Source: Chamaesiphon sp. (GTDB lineage: Bacteria; Cyanobacteriota; Cyanobacteriia; Cyanobacteriales; Chamaesiphonaceae). Taken from it: DNA of 64,000 bases. The stretch spans positions 96,001 through 160,000 of the forward strand of contig CBDFFH010000020.1 in NCBI GenBank assembly GCA_965246715.1, written 5' to 3'. The position numbers and the translations under genes are program-made. Under the pieces are notes generated by a model, which saw only the letters and a list, made by a program, of their open reading frames with translations, made no database searches and was not told the DNA's origin. Below, piece by piece: positions 2,577 through 22,469 of the stretch (the stretch's first letter is position 1; each line of letters begins with the position of its first letter).

Positions 2577-4009
2577 GGCTCTTCACTAGTTAGTATGCCA
2601 AGTCAATGATTAAAATGCCAACTCAGCAAGCACCTGTTGCGAAAATTTACAAAATTAGTGAATCCATATGCAGAACGTTTGATTAGCTTGAGTTTGGTAT
2701 TAATTCCTTCTACTGTTCCACTAGTTGTTCTATTGTCAAAATAAGCTAGTATTTCATCAAACCATCGATAAATTGTCGCTTGACTGTTGACAAAATACTT
2801 TTGCACTATGGAAAGCCATTCCCCTAATCTCAGTAATCCCTCAGTCCAGTTTCCCTTTCTCTCAAATATTTCTCGAAAATTTTTCTTTAATTGGTGCATT
2901 TTTCCCAGCCGACTTGATGCCTTTTTTACCTGAATCAACTTTTCTTTCTGTTCCGTATTTAAATCTTTTTCATTTTTCAATATCGCATACTTACTATTGA
3001 CTATTCCTGATAGTATGGCTGATTTTTCTGCTTTCTCTTCAGGAGCTTTCGTTTGCTTTATTTCTGCTTCTATTTTTCGCTTTTCTTTCTTTCTCCATCT
3101 AATTCTTGATTGATTTGTGCCATTACATGAAACCTATCTGCTACTATTTGAGCATTAGGTAATATTTCTGCCGCTAGACTTTTATACCCCTTCCATAGGT
3201 CTATGCTCACTTCTTCAATTCCTTCTAATACCTCTAAACCCCACCCTATCAAGACTTTTTTAATTTCTTCTTTAGTTCTTCCCTCAACGATCGCCAATAA
3301 TTTAGAACGATCTAAGTCTACTAACACTGCACAGTATTTCCCCTGCCCTTTAATCAAAGCTATTTCGTCTATCCCTAATCTTTTTAGCCCTACTGGCTTC
3401 ATTCCTAATAAATTTTTAGATGCATCTTTTAACATTCTTTCTATGTCTTTTTCTGTCACCTTTCCCTTCTTTGCTACACTACTAATGTCATCTGCTAATA
3501 CTTTCCCTATTGTCTGAGCTGCTAATCTTTTTGTATACCTTCTCCTTGACTTGACAAAATCTAATTTTTCACTAAATGGTTTCTGACATTTTTCACAGTT
3601 GAATTGTCTTCTATTTATTTCTAAAAATACAGCTTGCTCTCCCCAATTCAAATCTTTAATTATTTGTCGATGATTTTGATGTAATTTATCACTTTTTAAA
3701 CCACAGCGTTGGCACACACTTGTTTTGACGAGCGACTCAATTTCTAGTATTATTCCAATTCCTTCATGCTGGTGCTTGGAAGTTACTTTTACTCCCTCTA
3801 GGTTGAGTACTTCTGTTAGTAGTTGTAGTTCCTTTTTAGTAAACATCTTCTTTAAGTTTGTCTAAATATTACTTTCACTTAGACTATTTTTAATCATCAA
3901 ATGCTCTCTATGTCAATCATCACTGAGGTTTTCATGATAACTACATACATTTCTTGACTTTTGTTTGCCACTTTTGCTGTCGATCGAGCATACTAAGTAG
4001 TGAAGAGCC
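2577..4009 (-). mobile_element. ISL3 family insertion sequence (1433 bp)
   Basis: 22-bp IRs GGCTCTTCACTA(G/C)TTAGTATGC with 1 mismatch; no target duplication. Confidence 0.92.
2603..3846 (-). pseudogene. ISL3 transposase, frameshifted near 3070-3090
   Basis: CxxC zinc finger, LGIDE, VSIDLW, VADRFHV, VEGINTKLKLIKRSAYGF; split over two frames at an AGAA-repeat tract. Confidence 0.88.
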
Positions 4010-16253: not shown

Positions 16254-17630
16254 TTAGAAACGACAAGCATCAACAAAATTACTCATTCTAGATTGAATAT
16301 CGATAATCTGATCGATCCATTCATTTATAGGTTGTACACTTAAGGGAATTGTGTTGTTTGTAATCGACACAACACACTCATCTCCTAAAACTATTGGAGG
16401 AAGTATCATTGATGTTCTATTGAAGTTTTTTATGGACAAAATATTCTGTCCCCAAACTCCTCTCTCAATTAAATTTTTTCTTCCTACTGAGAGTAAGAGT
16501 CTTAGTCGTTCTGAATATCTCCCCTGTAAAATGCCACTTTCTAACTTTTCTAATTTAGCTTCGACTAAATGCTTAATTTTTTCTAAGTCAGGAAGTCCAG
16601 CATTTTTTAGGGATTCTTGAAGCCACTCTTCAACATGGATATTATCTCGATATTTAGCAGCTTGTGTAGCGATAATAAAAAATGCGAATCCAGGATCTGC
16701 CATATCTTTAAAAGATTGTATTCTTTCACCCCAAACATCATAATCTTTTGGTACATTCAAAGAATGAAATAGCTCTTCAGGTAAATTAAGACAGAGAGTA
16801 GCTAATGCAGAAGAAAATTTATATGCTTCAATAGTTTCGCCGATCCCAATTGAATTAGCTAAACAGTGGGCTGCGACTGAGTAAATTGCTAGTTCAGGGT
16901 TGTATAAATTTTGCAATCTTTCTTTCTCAATTCTAGATTTTTCTACTAGTCTATAATTTTCATCAAGAAATGAAAGCCCCTCTTGTATGACTTGCAACTC
17001 CGCGTATGTAGCTGTAACTTCAGTTAATGAAGTCATACTGAAAGGCACACGAATAATACGTTCATCAGATTTGTAGAACGTAGTGAAAAGAATAGGTCTA
17101 TCTTTTCTAGGCGTACCATCAGCACCAAATTCAACACCAGTAGAATATCTGTAGTGCCAAGTCTTACCAATACAATTATTTAAATTAACATAGTATTTTT
17201 CGGTATAGTAAGTTGAAAGTCTGGCTCTGGCTCTCTCAGAATTAGCACTTACTATTCTATGAAACTCTTGTTCATTTTGATTAGTCCATGCGTTGATGGC
17301 ATTATAAATAAAGATTAACTGCTTTTGCCCCCAGAGAGTAGATGTATGATCTAACCAGTGTGTTAGCTCATGTGTACAGGTAGAATAAAATTTTACTATT
17401 GAATTGTGATTTGCTTGCAGCACATTTTTTTGTGAGTTTAAGTCTTCATTCCTGAAATGATTAATGCTTTTAAAAAGCTGATTAAAAGTTTGCATTTCTA
17501 AATAGTCAAGACAAACTATTTGTGAAAGGTCGTCATAAGATCCGATCGTTTCAAGATTGGCAAATATTCCAAATTTCCTAGCATAATTATTAAGGTTTTG
17601 AACACTTCTTCTGTTTTTAGATTCGACCAT
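16254..17630 (-). CDS. AT-rich hypothetical protein with an HExxH metallopeptidase-like motif
   Basis: 458-aa ORF, THELTHWLDH and a later TEVTATYAE; visibly AT-richer than the flanks. Confidence 0.7.
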   Translation of the reverse strand: MVESKNRRSVQNLNNYARKFGIFANLETIGSYDDLSQIVCLDYLEMQTFNQLFKSINHFRNEDLNSQKNVLQANHNSIVKFYSTCTHELTHWLDHTSTLWGQKQLIFIYNAINAWTNQNEQEFHRIVSANSERARARLSTYYTEKYYVNLNNCIGKTWHYRYSTGVEFGADGTPRKDRPILFTTFYKSDERIIRVPFSMTSLTEVTATYAELQVIQEGLSFLDENYRLVEKSRIEKERLQNLYNPELAIYSVAAHCLANSIGIGETIEAYKFSSALATLCLNLPEELFHSLNVPKDYDVWGERIQSFKDMADPGFAFFIIATQAAKYRDNIHVEEWLQESLKNAGLPDLEKIKHLVEAKLEKLESGILQGRYSERLRLLLSVGRKNLIERGVWGQNILSIKNFNRTSMILPPIVLGDECVVSITNNTIPLSVQPINEWIDQIIDIQSRMSNFVDACRF

Positions 17631-19171: not shown

Positions 19172-20290
19172 CTAACCGAAGGTCGCAGTTACAACAGATG
19201 AAATCGTGCTGATATCCGCCCGATCGATGGCTCTCGCCAGACCAGTAATATTACACATACAGGTTTCACAGTCCATCTCATCGCGGAGAATGCACTTACC
19301 AACGCTGTCACCATTGAAGTTCAAGCTCTCAACTCGGTTAGCCACCGAGCAGTCTGCGGGACTGTGAATGATATGCTCTTCGTCAAACAGAAACTCATTC
19401 ACCGTCGGCTGATTGAAGGGGAATAATTGCCAGCCATACTTCTGAGCTGCTGCCACGATCGCCTGCTTGAGCTGTTGACGCTCGATCGGTGTAAATGCCA
19501 CCGGATCGGTTTTAGAAGCTGCTGTGGTGCCAGAAACCACGATTCCGCGCAGCTTTTCGATGTTGGCAACCAGCCAGTCGATGGTTGCTGAAAATTGGTC
19601 GATCGCCGATCTGGTGAGGGTCAGATGTACATACGCACCTCGTTCAGAGCGATCGATATTCCGCGCGATCGCGGCGGTCATCCCGGTTAATTCTTTGTAG
19701 CGATGACTGGCAAAGAAGCCTAGCGGATCTCTAGCTTGATTATGAGCATCTGGCAACCCATCCAGGCTCACGAAGACGCTGACCGATCGCGGCAATGATG
19801 GCAGCTTAATCGAGCCATTTGTTACTACCCAGACTACTGGAAATAATGCGGCGGCTTGCTCGATCGCTTTGGGTGCGAGTGCAGGTTCTCCGCCCACCAG
19901 CGTGACATGAACGATGCCTTGCTTTTGCAGCCGCTCTAACGTTTCAAATACTTGTGCTTCTTTACGTTCGTGGTCTGGTTTTGATAGCTGTAAGTATCCC
20001 TGTACCCGATCGTGTTGCGTCCATTCTGGTGGGTAAACATAGCAATAGTGACATCCCGCATTACAGCGATCGGTAATTTCGATCGATGCGGCAAATTTGG
20101 TGCTGCTACCCCGCAGTAGATGTGATGCCACAGTTGCGGTTGCCTGCGCGATCGTTACGGTGCGCTGAAGCTTCTCGGTGAGAGAATAAGGCGGTTGATA
20201 AGGCACGAATGTGGGGGTAGACATTTTCATTAAAAATGAAGTGCTATCACCTATCGTAGAACATAAGTTATTTTCACGGTCGTTATCCAT
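19172..20290 (-). CDS. Radical SAM protein with a C-terminal Cys-rich (Twitch/SPASM-like) region
   Basis: ITDRCNAGCHYCY, VGGEP, VTNG, VSLDG; C-terminal C..KCIL..DCETCMC; true start may be near 20229. Confidence 0.88.
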   Translation of the reverse strand: MDNDRENNLCSTIGDSTSFLMKMSTPTFVPYQPPYSLTEKLQRTVTIAQATATVASHLLRGSSTKFAASIEITDRCNAGCHYCYVYPPEWTQHDRVQGYLQLSKPDHERKEAQVFETLERLQKQGIVHVTLVGGEPALAPKAIEQAAALFPVVWVVTNGSIKLPSLPRSVSVFVSLDGLPDAHNQARDPLGFFASHRYKELTGMTAAIARNIDRSERGAYVHLTLTRSAIDQFSATIDWLVANIEKLRGIVVSGTTAASKTDPVAFTPIERQQLKQAIVAAAQKYGWQLFPFNQPTVNEFLFDEEHIIHSPADCSVANRVESLNFNGDSVGKCILRDEMDCETCMCNITGLARAIDRADISTISSVVTATFG

Positions 20291-20449
20291 TGATGCTCAT
20301 GGTAAAATTACATGGAGGAAGGTTTAGATCGCTAATAGAGTAGGAAATTTTATTTTCTACGTTCAAAAATCTCGTTCAAGATCGAATACTTGTATAGCTT
20401 AAAGCTAAAATATTATTCACCCAAGAGCGTAGATTTAACAGCTTAGAAG

Positions 20450-21080
20450 TTATGGGGAAAAGTTCCGCCAGACAAGTAGAAGGTGTTAACGGCCTTTGAA
20501 ACAACTAAGGTCGAAATAGTCTAAGTTTTATGAGAGGCATCAAGCCAGAGCGTTCTTTTCTTATTAACCACTTACAGGTTGTAAACTTCTCTAATTTTGG
20601 TGAGAAATTAGAAGAGGGAGCGGAAGACCATTTATCTATAGTTCGGTCATATTTGTCTCCCCTTTTGACAATAGATTCATCTATAGGCTCAATTCTCATC
20701 AGGCTCTAACTATTAAAAACTCATTTCACATTGTCCTGTGACGTGGCGGCGTTCTTACCCCTTTGCCTGGTGAGCGACTACCATTTAAAGGTCGTAGGTG
20801 CGGAGAATCAATCTGTTAATTCAAGTGGCATTACTGCTACTTGAATTAGTGAGTTTAGCCAATTTCTTCCGAGAGATCGGGGAGATTTTAGTAACTCAGA
20901 GAATCACTAGTAGCGGAAGGTTTTATAGGATATTAATAGATATTACTCTAGTTGTGGAAGCTGCCAGAGGCTATCGAACTAATGAATGCCTTGGTGATAA
21001 AGTCTCTTCGAGACAACTCGTTTAGCCCTTTAGAGTTATGTCAGTAATGTCATGATAATATCTAATGTCCAGATATCGAT
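20450..21080 (+). ncRNA. Candidate large structured non-coding RNA or leader (boundaries approximate)
   Basis: Long intergenic with serial hairpins containing G-U pairs valid only on the + strand, a GAGA tetraloop and a 3' ATRTC repeat tract. Confidence 0.45.
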
Positions 21081-21116
21081 CGATACCTTTCTCTTTCAAC
21101 CTCAAATTAATTACTG

Positions 21117-21845
21117 ATGGTACAAACTACATTTACAAAGCAGAAAAGGGAACTCGAAAAAGCAGTAGCTTGGATCGAAAAAATTCGCGCTCAAGAAGTG
21201 CGCCAGCGTCGTTATAACGATCGCGATGAATTAGAAGAAGAAATTAGAGAAGCCTATGTAGATCATTCACCCGAAGAAATTGCCCATAAAGCGATCGAGA
21301 TTGTGCGTGAAGTAGTGAGTCAACACGCTGCTCGTCAACAAGCTAATTCAGCAAATCGTGGAACTTTTGCCTGGAGTGGTATTAATGTTGAACTAACCGT
21401 CCCCCAATTACGCACGCTTCAAAGTGCCCATGTGATATTTAGCGAACTGGTTAGAAAATTGCCGCGTCGTAATCCTAAATTAGTATACAATACTTCGATC
21501 GACAATCGCCCAGCATTCGCTCATATCAAGCAGAGACACGAAAAAACAGAAATTCGATATACTCCCTACGAAGAAGAAGCAAGTAATCGAATTCGCACCT
21601 ATGAAGAAAAGCATCAAGTTATCAGTCACTATACACAAAAAATAGAAATTGACTACGGGTTGGAAATCAAAAAGTTAACAGAATTAAATGAGATGGTGGA
21701 CGATCTCGGTACTGCCATTCAAATTGCAATCGATGAAGCTAATACGAAAGGACGTAGCAACGACCCACTTATCGATGATTTAATTCAGAGAATTGGATCG
21801 GTATTACTAGAGAAATTACCTTTAGATTCCTCGATCGATCCTTAA
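21117..21845 (+). CDS. Hypothetical protein, helical/coiled-coil with a central beta-rich segment
   Basis: 242-aa ORF; charged N- and C-terminal helices (..DLGTAIQIAIDEANTK); no enzyme motif recognised. Confidence 0.75.
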   Translation: MVQTTFTKQKRELEKAVAWIEKIRAQEVRQRRYNDRDELEEEIREAYVDHSPEEIAHKAIEIVREVVSQHAARQQANSANRGTFAWSGINVELTVPQLRTLQSAHVIFSELVRKLPRRNPKLVYNTSIDNRPAFAHIKQRHEKTEIRYTPYEEEASNRIRTYEEKHQVISHYTQKIEIDYGLEIKKLTELNEMVDDLGTAIQIAIDEANTKGRSNDPLIDDLIQRIGSVLLEKLPLDSSIDP

Positions 21846-22469
21846 ATGAAAACTCCATCGATTCAATTATCTCTAGCAGGAGATCGACGATTGATTCGTC
21901 TTACTCAAGCAACAGCAATAATTGCTTATCATCAATTTTCTAGTGTTAATCCTAGATATTTGATGGGAAAAATAAGATCTTTCAATAGTAAAGATCGCCT
22001 TTTGTACAATCTATGGAATTCCTCCTACTTTACTATCCTAGATCGGCAAGATATTAGAACTATCGAATCCGAATTAAATCGGCAAATTATCGATAATAGC
22101 TTGTGCTTAGTGGAAAATGAAGGTAAATTATTTGATGGCAATACAAATGCAGTAGATATTTGTAAAGGCTCTATCCCTAGTAGTTATATCTTCCGTTATG
22201 GCATGAAGTTTACGGTAGAACCCATTGTCAAAAGCAAAATGCTTGGCATGAAAAATCTAGATCTATTTTGGCAAGATCGAGATTTTAATTTTCACTATGT
22301 TCGTTATTGTGGTTTACTATCCTCTCCCCGCCAACAGCAGGTAAAATTACGATTTTGCCATCCTCTAGACTTGTTGAAAATCTGGACTTGTACTGTAGCT
22401 GAGTTTCAACCTCGACAAATTCTGATGATTCAAAAAATCTATCCATGCAAAGGATTCTACTTGAAATAG
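21846..22469 (+). CDS. Hypothetical protein, directly abutting the upstream gene
   Basis: 207-aa ORF starting immediately after the TAA (TAAATG). Confidence 0.65.
   Translation: MKTPSIQLSLAGDRRLIRLTQATAIIAYHQFSSVNPRYLMGKIRSFNSKDRLLYNLWNSSYFTILDRQDIRTIESELNRQIIDNSLCLVENEGKLFDGNTNAVDICKGSIPSSYIFRYGMKFTVEPIVKSKMLGMKNLDLFWQDRDFNFHYVRYCGLLSSPRQQQVKLRFCHPLDLLKIWTCTVAEFQPRQILMIQKIYPCKGFYLK

Follow-up and report, generated by a model that had tools for sequence, protein, structure and literature searches.

A conserved structured RNA carrying a permuted copy of 16S rRNA helix 16, encoded beside a DUF7873-like gene in Chamaesiphon and other bacteria

Background

To our knowledge the known classes of large bacterial non-coding RNA with an intricate fold are few in number, and most of these come without a functional handle. 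Here we describe such an RNA, encoded directly upstream of two genes, ORF1 and ORF2, in a stretch of 64,000 nucleotides from Chamaesiphon sp. (Cyanobacteriota; assembly GCA_965246715.1, contig CBDFFH010000020.1, positions 96,001 to 160,000 of the forward strand). This stretch is referred to as the window, and coordinates are those of the window unless another locus is named. An earlier note, made by reading the sequence, had proposed that a long structured RNA on the + strand is tied to two orphan genes in a "ribonucleoprotein or RNA-regulated module" of no known family.

The closest described systems are RNAs that imitate parts of the translation machinery. The OLE RNA mimics part of 16S rRNA, namely the Shine-Dalgarno/anti-Shine-Dalgarno duplex, and binds the ribosomal protein bS21 (PMC12054373). 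In the S4 leaders of Firmicutes and Fusobacteria the proposed S4 site is a GUAA bulge that imitates rRNA (PMC3849166, PMC7247131). On 16S rRNA itself uS4 contacts nucleotides 404-406, 410-412, 425-430 and 437, and deletion of 410-432 lowers uS4 binding more than 380-fold, as described by Bellur and Woodson (PMC2665224). The Chamaesiphon RNA likewise carries a piece of the small subunit, in this case a near-exact, permuted copy of 16S rRNA helix 16 that comprises both strands, the internal loop and the flanking stems. It is a new conserved class of RNA, as yet uncatalogued, with ORF1 and ORF2 as its neighbours. The helix-16 copy and a repeat track of 7-nt period are its two most informative features, neither of which appears in the earlier note.

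A copy of 16S rRNA helix 16

Taken as one profile, the RNA matches the 16S gene of its own genome at one place (E=2.6e-4). When profiles of the two strands of the arm, built from relatives of the RNA only, were run on both strands of the 6.1-Mb genome, for each of them only 2 of 12.2 million positions reached the score of the genome's own 16S, and both of these are 16S genes. In six further 16S sequences the best site of the strand profiles is also helix 16, and nothing was found in 23S. Of 45 profile windows along the RNA, all six that lie over the arm have 16S among their 30 best genome sites (ranks 1-4 in five of them), and in four of the other 39 an rRNA site is also among the best 30, at the weaker ranks of 4-23. 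No tRNA gene occurs in the top 30 sites of any of the 45. Further blocks of 16S likeness had been picked out by eye; the profile scans back helix 16 alone.

The copy is permuted in that its 3' strand precedes its 5' strand, a variable hairpin closes the base, and the remainder of the RNA stands where 16S has the apical loop. The first strand of the copy (20577..20590) we take to be equivalent to 424-437 in E. coli numbering and the second (20614..20629) to 406-419. The two stems flanking the loop are 96-99% paired and show double changes, whilst positions 410, 411, 413 and 414 (23/23) and 428-432 are invariant and position 437 is U in 22/24 sequences. Position 412 is variable, and it varies likewise among the 16S genes that were fetched. 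The 409/433 pair matches that of the host or its relatives in three of five lineages, these being the Cyanobacteria, the Myxococcota (with G at 433) and the Planctomycetota.

The RNA and its fold

The RNA lies in a gap of 826 nt between a radical SAM gene on the minus strand, which starts at 20290, and ORF1 at 21117. This region was described in the earlier note as packed with hairpins, and all seven of the stems listed there do form when folded alone; the G-U pairs noted in four of them (20586-617, 20754-74, 20816-49 and 20861-87) make the + strand the better folded one, as in -9.5 against -5.0 kcal/mol. As a whole the region 20300-21120 folds with z = -3.28, none of 20 shuffles being equally low, and the 3' half (20765-21085) gives z = -3.07 on the + strand and -1.76 on the - strand. 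The position of the RNA upstream of the two genes also stands, however its extent had to be revised, since the conserved RNA starts at least 90 nt before the 20450 from which it had been read.

The fold falls into two domains. In the 3' domain (domain 2) the 49 named pairs are 78.4% paired in a sequence-only alignment of 27 RNAs, with double changes at 38/49; none of 500 shuffles paired as well, and slid controls reached 35-44%. In the 5' domain (domain 1) 22 pairs are 89.6% paired in 24 RNAs, with double changes at 13/22. These values are strong indications and not probabilities, because the structure was derived from the same sequences and the shuffles ignore kinship. The long-range helix P1 (Table 1) appears by eye to have been replaced as a whole stem in sequences of the L025 type. 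In domain 2 the GCGG at 20800-03 is invariant (27/27), the first of the hairpins that follow has a GNRA loop in 19/27 sequences, the window genome not being among these, and the junction helix is extended by a weaker helix (20900-02/21003-05, 66.3% paired). No part of the RNA is more constant than this pseudoknotted 3' domain, which every clade retains, even those that are without the helix-16 arm and ORF2.

Comparison across relatives leaves some of the features first read from the window without support. The hairpins at 20726-41, 20754-74 and 21002-14 lie outside the helices that are supported, the last of them clashing with the covarying junction helix, and the GAGTT/AACTC helix (20851-55/20893-97) is 49.6% paired in the register tested and is unsupported. 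The recurring G(C/T)GGA(A/G) motif is indeed present in four copies against 0.46 expected in shuffles, the motif having been chosen post hoc, but only the copy at 20800 is conserved; that at 20620 is found in 1/24 sequences, and those at 20913 and 20954 are not conserved.

Known RNA families do not account for the region. The covariance models of Rfam 15, which include OLE, GOLLD, ROOL, raiA, HEARO, RNase P, tmRNA, group I and II introns and the r-leaders, gave 0 matches in the window at gathering scores. A relaxed search with E up to 5 returned two sub-threshold chance matches only, and at E 0.5 there was no match in the RNA of four other loci (L013, L017, L055 and L033). Neither a tRNA nor a tmRNA was found in the region, nor was there an intron or transposase match of the kind that would mark an intron or insertion sequence remnant. 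No published account of the RNA was found in the literature searched, which did not extend to supplements, where motif tables could list it.

Upstream of the RNA a candidate promoter element was read from the sequence (Table 1), which is missing from the output of a consensus promoter scan. Sigma-70-like sites (at least 9/12) lie 96-135 nt before the conserved head in 21/65 sequences, a raw count taken without a shuffle control. A shared sigma-54 promoter was sought among the loci and was not found.

Table 1. Features of the RNA and of its partner genes in the window
Feature	Position	Strand	Basis and remarks
Candidate extended -10 promoter element, TG-n-TAAAAT	20300..20308	+	read from sequence; start predicted near 20315
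Structured non-coding RNA, ~770 nt	20315..21090	+	conservation, covariation, RNA-library contigs; ends inferred
Conserved 5' head, ends UUCAAG	20357..20381	+	columns invariant or nearly so in 24 sequences
AAG-type repeat track, 7-nt period	20376..20462	+	autocorrelation; predicted site of the ORF1 oligomer
Long-range helix P1, closes domain 1	20463..20470 with 20744..20751	+	87% of cells paired, 4 invariant pairs, 2 double-change pairs
Covarying hairpin after P1	20479..20498	+	82.5% paired, double changes in 4/6 pairs
Shorter second AAG run	about 20499-20530	+	read by eye
Copy of helix 16 3' strand, comes first	20577..20590	+	profile of RNA relatives; GUAAA invariant in 24/24
Copy of helix 16 5' strand, comes second	20614..20629	+	profile of RNA relatives; covariation
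Conserved stem 20774-78/20791-95, then GCGG 20800-03	20774..20803	+	100% paired, double changes in 3/5 pairs
Two covarying hairpins	20817..20880	+	covariation
Junction helix 20903-07/20994-98	20900..21005	+	86.4% paired, double changes in 5/5 pairs
Long-range pseudoknot, 20928-33 with terminal loop 21065-70	20928..21070	+	87.7% paired, double changes in 4/6 pairs
Two 3' terminal hairpins	21034..21076	+	helices supported across relatives
ORF1, 242 aa, distant DUF7873 (PF25283) subfamily	21117..21845	+	homology, predicted structure
ORF2, 207 aa, abuts ORF1	21846..22469	+	predicted C-terminal SH3/Sm-like barrel, residues 125-195

Conservation and genomic context

A scan of 185,579 species genomes, which was a pattern-limited search, found 50 loci and a metagenome scan found a further 23. 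A profile of the 3' domain matches 63 of the 64 loci of ORF1 relatives that have at least 1 kb of upstream sequence; 25 of these 63 are rows on which the profile was trained, and among the remaining loci 38/39 matched, many of them close kin. The RNA occurs in Cyanobacteria, SAR324, Thiotrichaceae, a Clostridia bin, Myxococcota and Planctomycetota, and in all six groups a gap of ~1 kb with no consistent ORF lies ahead of ORF1 and the conserved blocks are collinear. The tie between a structured + strand RNA and the two genes that the earlier note proposed is thus borne out by cross-phylum conservation, covariation and contigs from RNA libraries. The helix-16 pattern is absent in 26 of 64 extracted RNAs, all of them from the rumen group; in two others (L036 and L067) the extracts began too late to show it.

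In a sample of 351 Planctomycetota genomes the unit was found in the centre genome only. ORF1 was not found in viral contigs, phages or plasmids, and the matches from two viral pattern scans and from one pattern search of 351 genomes did not exceed chance; when 170 loci were scored with the RNA profiles, short partial matches around the seeding pattern came up in 3 and a match to the 3' domain in 0. One Planctomycetota genome (G889, L279) has an identical 33-nt pattern match on six contigs, which is probably a repeat or insertion element. A decayed form of the unit exists in L052 (and L051), where a 224-nt deletion has removed the helix-16 arm, ORF1 is in pieces and ORF2 is cut to 156 aa.

The RNA is directly upstream of ORF1 and on the same strand in 63/64 loci, its end usually lying 13-200 nt before ORF1, with gaps of 377-539 nt in L036 and L067. 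In L033 the order is reversed, with ORF1, under a promoter of its own, ahead of the RNA. L066 (1770-2500) has a tandem upstream copy of the RNA with its own promoter and no ORF1. In L026 (6545-7500) the RNA and ORF1 have been duplicated together; the second RNA copy there was considered as a free-standing one and rejected, as a second ORF1 follows it. Because the RNA is downstream of the gene in L033, "ribonucleoprotein" is to be favoured over "RNA-regulated" amongst the two options that had been offered.

Contigs from RNA libraries fall within 20337-21082 in 7/7 RNA-labelled runs examined, which come from 6 studies and are a subset of 15 such runs found with the whole 2.2-kb stretch. In the same 7 runs cover of the ORFs amounts to a 338-nt piece of ORF1 in one run and a partial match of 35 nt in another, with none for ORF2; the missing cover of the ORFs is a weak hint. 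An eighth run of unknown kind covers the ORFs and the flanks as well. As contigs give neither strand nor level, they hint at a stable RNA but do not prove one. A joint between 20547 and 20772 seen in RNA was considered as splicing, however the same joint is present as DNA in L052 and it is therefore a deletion.

Besides ORF2, no neighbour family is found in more than 3/34 loci, and across 184 neighbouring ORFs neither a defence context nor a mobile one is recurrent. In the SAR324 locus L011 (980-3760) the unit is divergent from rtcR (775 bits, above cut-off) and an rtcB-like gene lies beyond; by eye a sigma-54 site may be present near 3738, oriented toward the RNA. In L015 an RtcR-like gene, scoring below cut-off, precedes the unit. 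In the window the radical SAM gene (19172-20290, minus strand) has no family-level match, its best being viperin-like and far below cut-off, and it is not among the recurring neighbours of the unit. Further away, 16254-17630 (minus strand) encodes a 458-aa protein with a HELTH metalloprotease-like motif and a weak zincin match (E=0.045).

The AAG track and the partner proteins

Between the conserved head and P1 runs a track of AAG-type repeats. Over 30 segments autocorrelation gives z of 18.6 at 7 nt, 11.9 at 14 and 8.9 at 22, values that come from an approximate dinucleotide shuffle and are inflated by the relatedness of the sequences.

Both ORFs are as the earlier note had described them. 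It read ORF1 as ending in AIQIAIDEANTK, which is a conserved motif; it is not the end, as the protein runs 31 residues further. The same note likened ORF1 to DIP1984/DUF6847 proteins. Pfam gives no such match and neither the fold searches nor the sequence search of PDB list these families, yet the guess came close, since relatives of ORF1 match DUF7873 (PF25283). The protein search returned 126 relatives, several of which carry this domain; against a cut-off of 27 bits P0089 (52% identical) scores 29.6 bits and P0004 (81% identical) 23.6 bits. ORF1 of the window itself has no match in Pfam at E 0.1. Compared with profiles of canonical DUF7873 it gives a weak, full-length match (172 columns, 18% identity, E=0.004, probability 7.9%), and a search of 1.8 billion representatives found no further distant family. 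Its model (pLDDT 86) is of predicted long helical hairpins and a long beta-hairpin. In fold searches there was no match at E 0.001 in PDB or in viral models, only generic helical bundles with Z up to 9.1; Cas7 rows were weak (TM about 0.1) and were dismissed. In the tree the closest named ORF1 is from a Chamaesiphon bin.

ORF2 has 30 relatives and follows ORF1 in 37/72 loci. The 35 loci without it comprise 31 from rumen Thermoguttaceae, 3 with no downstream sequence and the divergent L050; the ten rumen Thermoguttaceae rows in the tree form a single clade. The model of ORF2 (pLDDT 88) resembles many SH3/Sm-like barrels (RimP, Hfq, WYL, C39) at Z 5-6, which is non-specific, and Foldseek gave no significant match. 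A language-model lead to RVT_1 (138-148 shared features) is unsupported by Pfam and by the predicted fold. Neither ORF1 nor ORF2 matches Ro60/TROVE, and no TROVE protein occurs in the 32 and 26 scanned of the 184 neighbouring ORFs, whole genomes being outside this search. ORF2 is fused to leucine-rich repeats in L055 (4750-6630), and in L060-L062 and L068 it has an extension of ~190 aa of no assigned family (L060:4234-5463).

Canonical DUF7873 genes, which are present in 17/301 genomes of the phylum, have an RNA of their own. In the loci L076-L090 a different conserved RNA lies ~50-450 nt downstream of the gene and holds up to three permuted tRNA-like units, in which the T-loop comes first, followed by a closed acceptor-like stem and then the D-loop; the linkers between the units have a 6-nt period (z 4.9-9.9). 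One of these RNAs matches YrlA at 36.6 bits (E=2e-4), below the 69-bit cut-off. The Chamaesiphon genome also has a canonical DUF7873 gene (L091:1427-1866, contig C44 26158-26597), which is in two pieces with the N-terminal part gone, and no tRNA-like units are visible behind it.

That ORF1 would bind the track as an oligomer is suggested mainly by the finding that two related proteins each go with a track of their own period. No function of the DUF7873 family was found in print, and the pairing of RNA and protein described here suggests a first one for this unstudied family.

Proposed function and rival explanations

The interpretation that we favour, and to which we would give close to an even chance, is that the RNA, an ORF1 oligomer and ORF2 form a particle that captures free uS4 through the helix-16 arm. 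A single transcript from a sigma-70-type promoter would yield a stable RNA that outlasts the coding part. Repeat-binding RNA rings place one subunit on each repeat, and each ORF1 subunit may likewise bind one AAG repeat. The arm would then bind uS4, a protein that occurs free once 30S subunits have been damaged or have not been assembled, so that the particle would sense or buffer stress of the small subunit. The SH3/Sm-like barrel of ORF2 may work together with the arm. In favour of this interpretation are the conservation and covariation of the RNA, the helix-16 copy with its invariant loop bases at uS4 contacts, the two track periods of the DUF7873 branches, the changeable position of the RNA relative to ORF1, the RNA-library contigs, the joint absence of ORF2 and the helix-16 pattern in one clade, and the rtcR and rtcB-like genes beside one locus. 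A broader proposal, somewhat short of an even chance, is that DUF7873-like proteins are a general scaffold that polymerises on periodic A-rich tracks and presents exchangeable mimics of the translation machinery. The canonical branch would combine a 6-nt track with tRNA elbows, and this branch a 7-nt track with 16S helix 16. The locus would then represent a new class of large bacterial ribonucleoprotein, a ribosome-mimic particle that traps uS4 or helix-16-directed factors and reads or buffers small-subunit damage.

A number of observations weigh against the capture of uS4. The high-affinity site of uS4 is a five-helix junction (H3, H4, H16, H17 and H18), and loss of H3 or H4 ruins binding (PMC2665224). 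In the RNA, sequence profiles detect only H16 and the first base of H17 and no copies of H3, H4 or H18; structural equivalents of the other junction helices are possible. U405, a base read by uS4, is kept in only 10/23 sequences, the 409/433 pair differs from that of the relatives' 16S in Thiotrichaceae and in the Clostridia bin, and the copy in the window genome has a 2-nt insertion in the loop near 412. Rumen Thermoguttaceae have kept the RNA and ORF1 but lack the helix-16 arm, which the module can therefore do without. The clade without ORF2 is also without the helix-16 pattern (26/27 extracted sequences), however this joint loss is that of one clade and is therefore not independent evidence, and L033 keeps the arm with no ORF2 within 5 kb. 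Furthermore RNA libraries can hold DNA, a clear RNA-repair context is present in only 1/34 loci with neighbours examined, and the module is rare, with the unit in 1/301 genomes of the order (that of the window) and in 0/7 other genomes of the genus.

The failure of sequence profiles to detect the other four helices of the S4 junction also speaks for a different use of the same particle, in which the arm would serve as bait and draw in a nuclease, a toxin or a modifying enzyme that acts on helix 16, or would guide 16S repair. The arm has an open apical loop and a closed base, which is the same permutation as in the tRNA mimics of canonical DUF7873, these mimics are YrlA-like (at the score given above), YrlA-type mimics reportedly sit in RNA-repair operons, and L011 has its rtcR and rtcB-like genes. 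On the other hand we know of no enzyme that targets helix 16, the neighbourhood is without a recurrent defence or mobile context, no phage or plasmid copy was found, and the conserved bases are those listed for S4 contact (PMC2665224), all of which makes bait or guide an unlikely role. Another reading makes the RNA a 5' leader of unusual length, which would respond to free uS4 and control ORF1-ORF2 in cis, with ORF1 feeding back on the track. Leaders with a GUAA mimic are known (PMC3849166, PMC7247131), and the position of the RNA ahead of ORF1 in nearly all loci and the joint duplication in L026 would suit such a leader. It would not readily explain an RNA that lies downstream of an ORF1 with its own promoter (L033), the ORF-less copy in L066 or the long gaps in L036 and L067; moreover ~490 nt separate the arm from the start codon, none of the downstream genes encodes a ribosomal protein and the RNA contigs are mostly without ORFs, and a leader seems rather improbable.

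It is also conceivable that the RNA is a catalytic or structural scaffold whose pseudoknotted 3' domain does the main work, the helix-16 copy being either a borrowed module or a means to recruit uS4 as a helper in folding or anti-termination. uS4 has a role in rRNA anti-termination, and the retention of domain 2 by every clade, even where the arm and ORF2 are absent, along with its invariant unpaired bases, GNRA loops and long-range pseudoknot, would be in keeping with this. No ribozyme or intron model of Rfam matches even weakly, however, and the sole joint seen in RNA (20547 to 20772) is a deletion in DNA, as in L052, and we consider such a scaffold rather improbable. Finally, the patchy distribution and the decayed lineage L052, with its deletion and broken ORFs, might suggest that what remains here is the relic of an rRNA gene, an intron or a mobile element. 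The compensatory changes across phyla largely refute this, the clear likeness to rRNA is limited to helix 16 and is in permuted order, and there is no intron, transposase or tRNA match; a group II intron in particular has neither an Rfam intron match nor a backed RVT_1 lead in ORF2. A remnant is thus highly improbable.

Whilst the rarity of the module lowers its general reach, the RNA comes with three testable handles, which are the precise copy of the uS4-contact region, a regular repeat track that predicts how a partner protein binds and two dedicated partner genes. Cultured hosts of the unit exist, as there are records from Nostoc, Calothrix and Polyangium.

Comparison with known systems

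Like the OLE ribonucleoprotein, the unit pairs a large structured bacterial RNA, OLE being about 600 nt, with partner proteins (PMC12054373). It differs in that there is no match to OLE in Rfam and the phyla are different, in that the mimic is the two-stranded internal loop of helix 16, and in that the partners are a DUF7873-like and an SH3/Sm-like protein and not OapA/B/C. With the Y RNA YrlA and Ro60/Rsr (RF02553) it shares a non-coding RNA that is beside a protein gene and is a permuted mimic of an RNA of translation (PMC4201824). The RNA described here is however ~5x longer, mimics 16S helix 16, has the 7-nt track and is without a tRNA-like module, no match to YrlA or to a tRNA, as would mark the T-arm/acceptor/D-arm module, having been found in the region.

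The S4 leaders of Firmicutes and Fusobacteria resemble it in that they too imitate the uS4 site on 16S by means of a conserved GUAA element (PMC3849166, PMC7247131); these are short cis leaders of rpsD operons, whereas the RNA here copies both strands of helix 16, stands beside non-ribosomal genes (ORF1 and ORF2, not rpsD) and can be downstream of them. Canonical DUF7873 loci share an adjacent RNA with periodic A-rich linkers, but there the RNA is downstream, the period is 6 and tRNA elbows are mimicked, in contrast to an upstream RNA, a period of 7 and a 16S mimic in this branch. Taken together, and judged by analogy, the RNA would appear to work most like OLE with bS21 and YrlA with Ro60, whilst belonging to neither.

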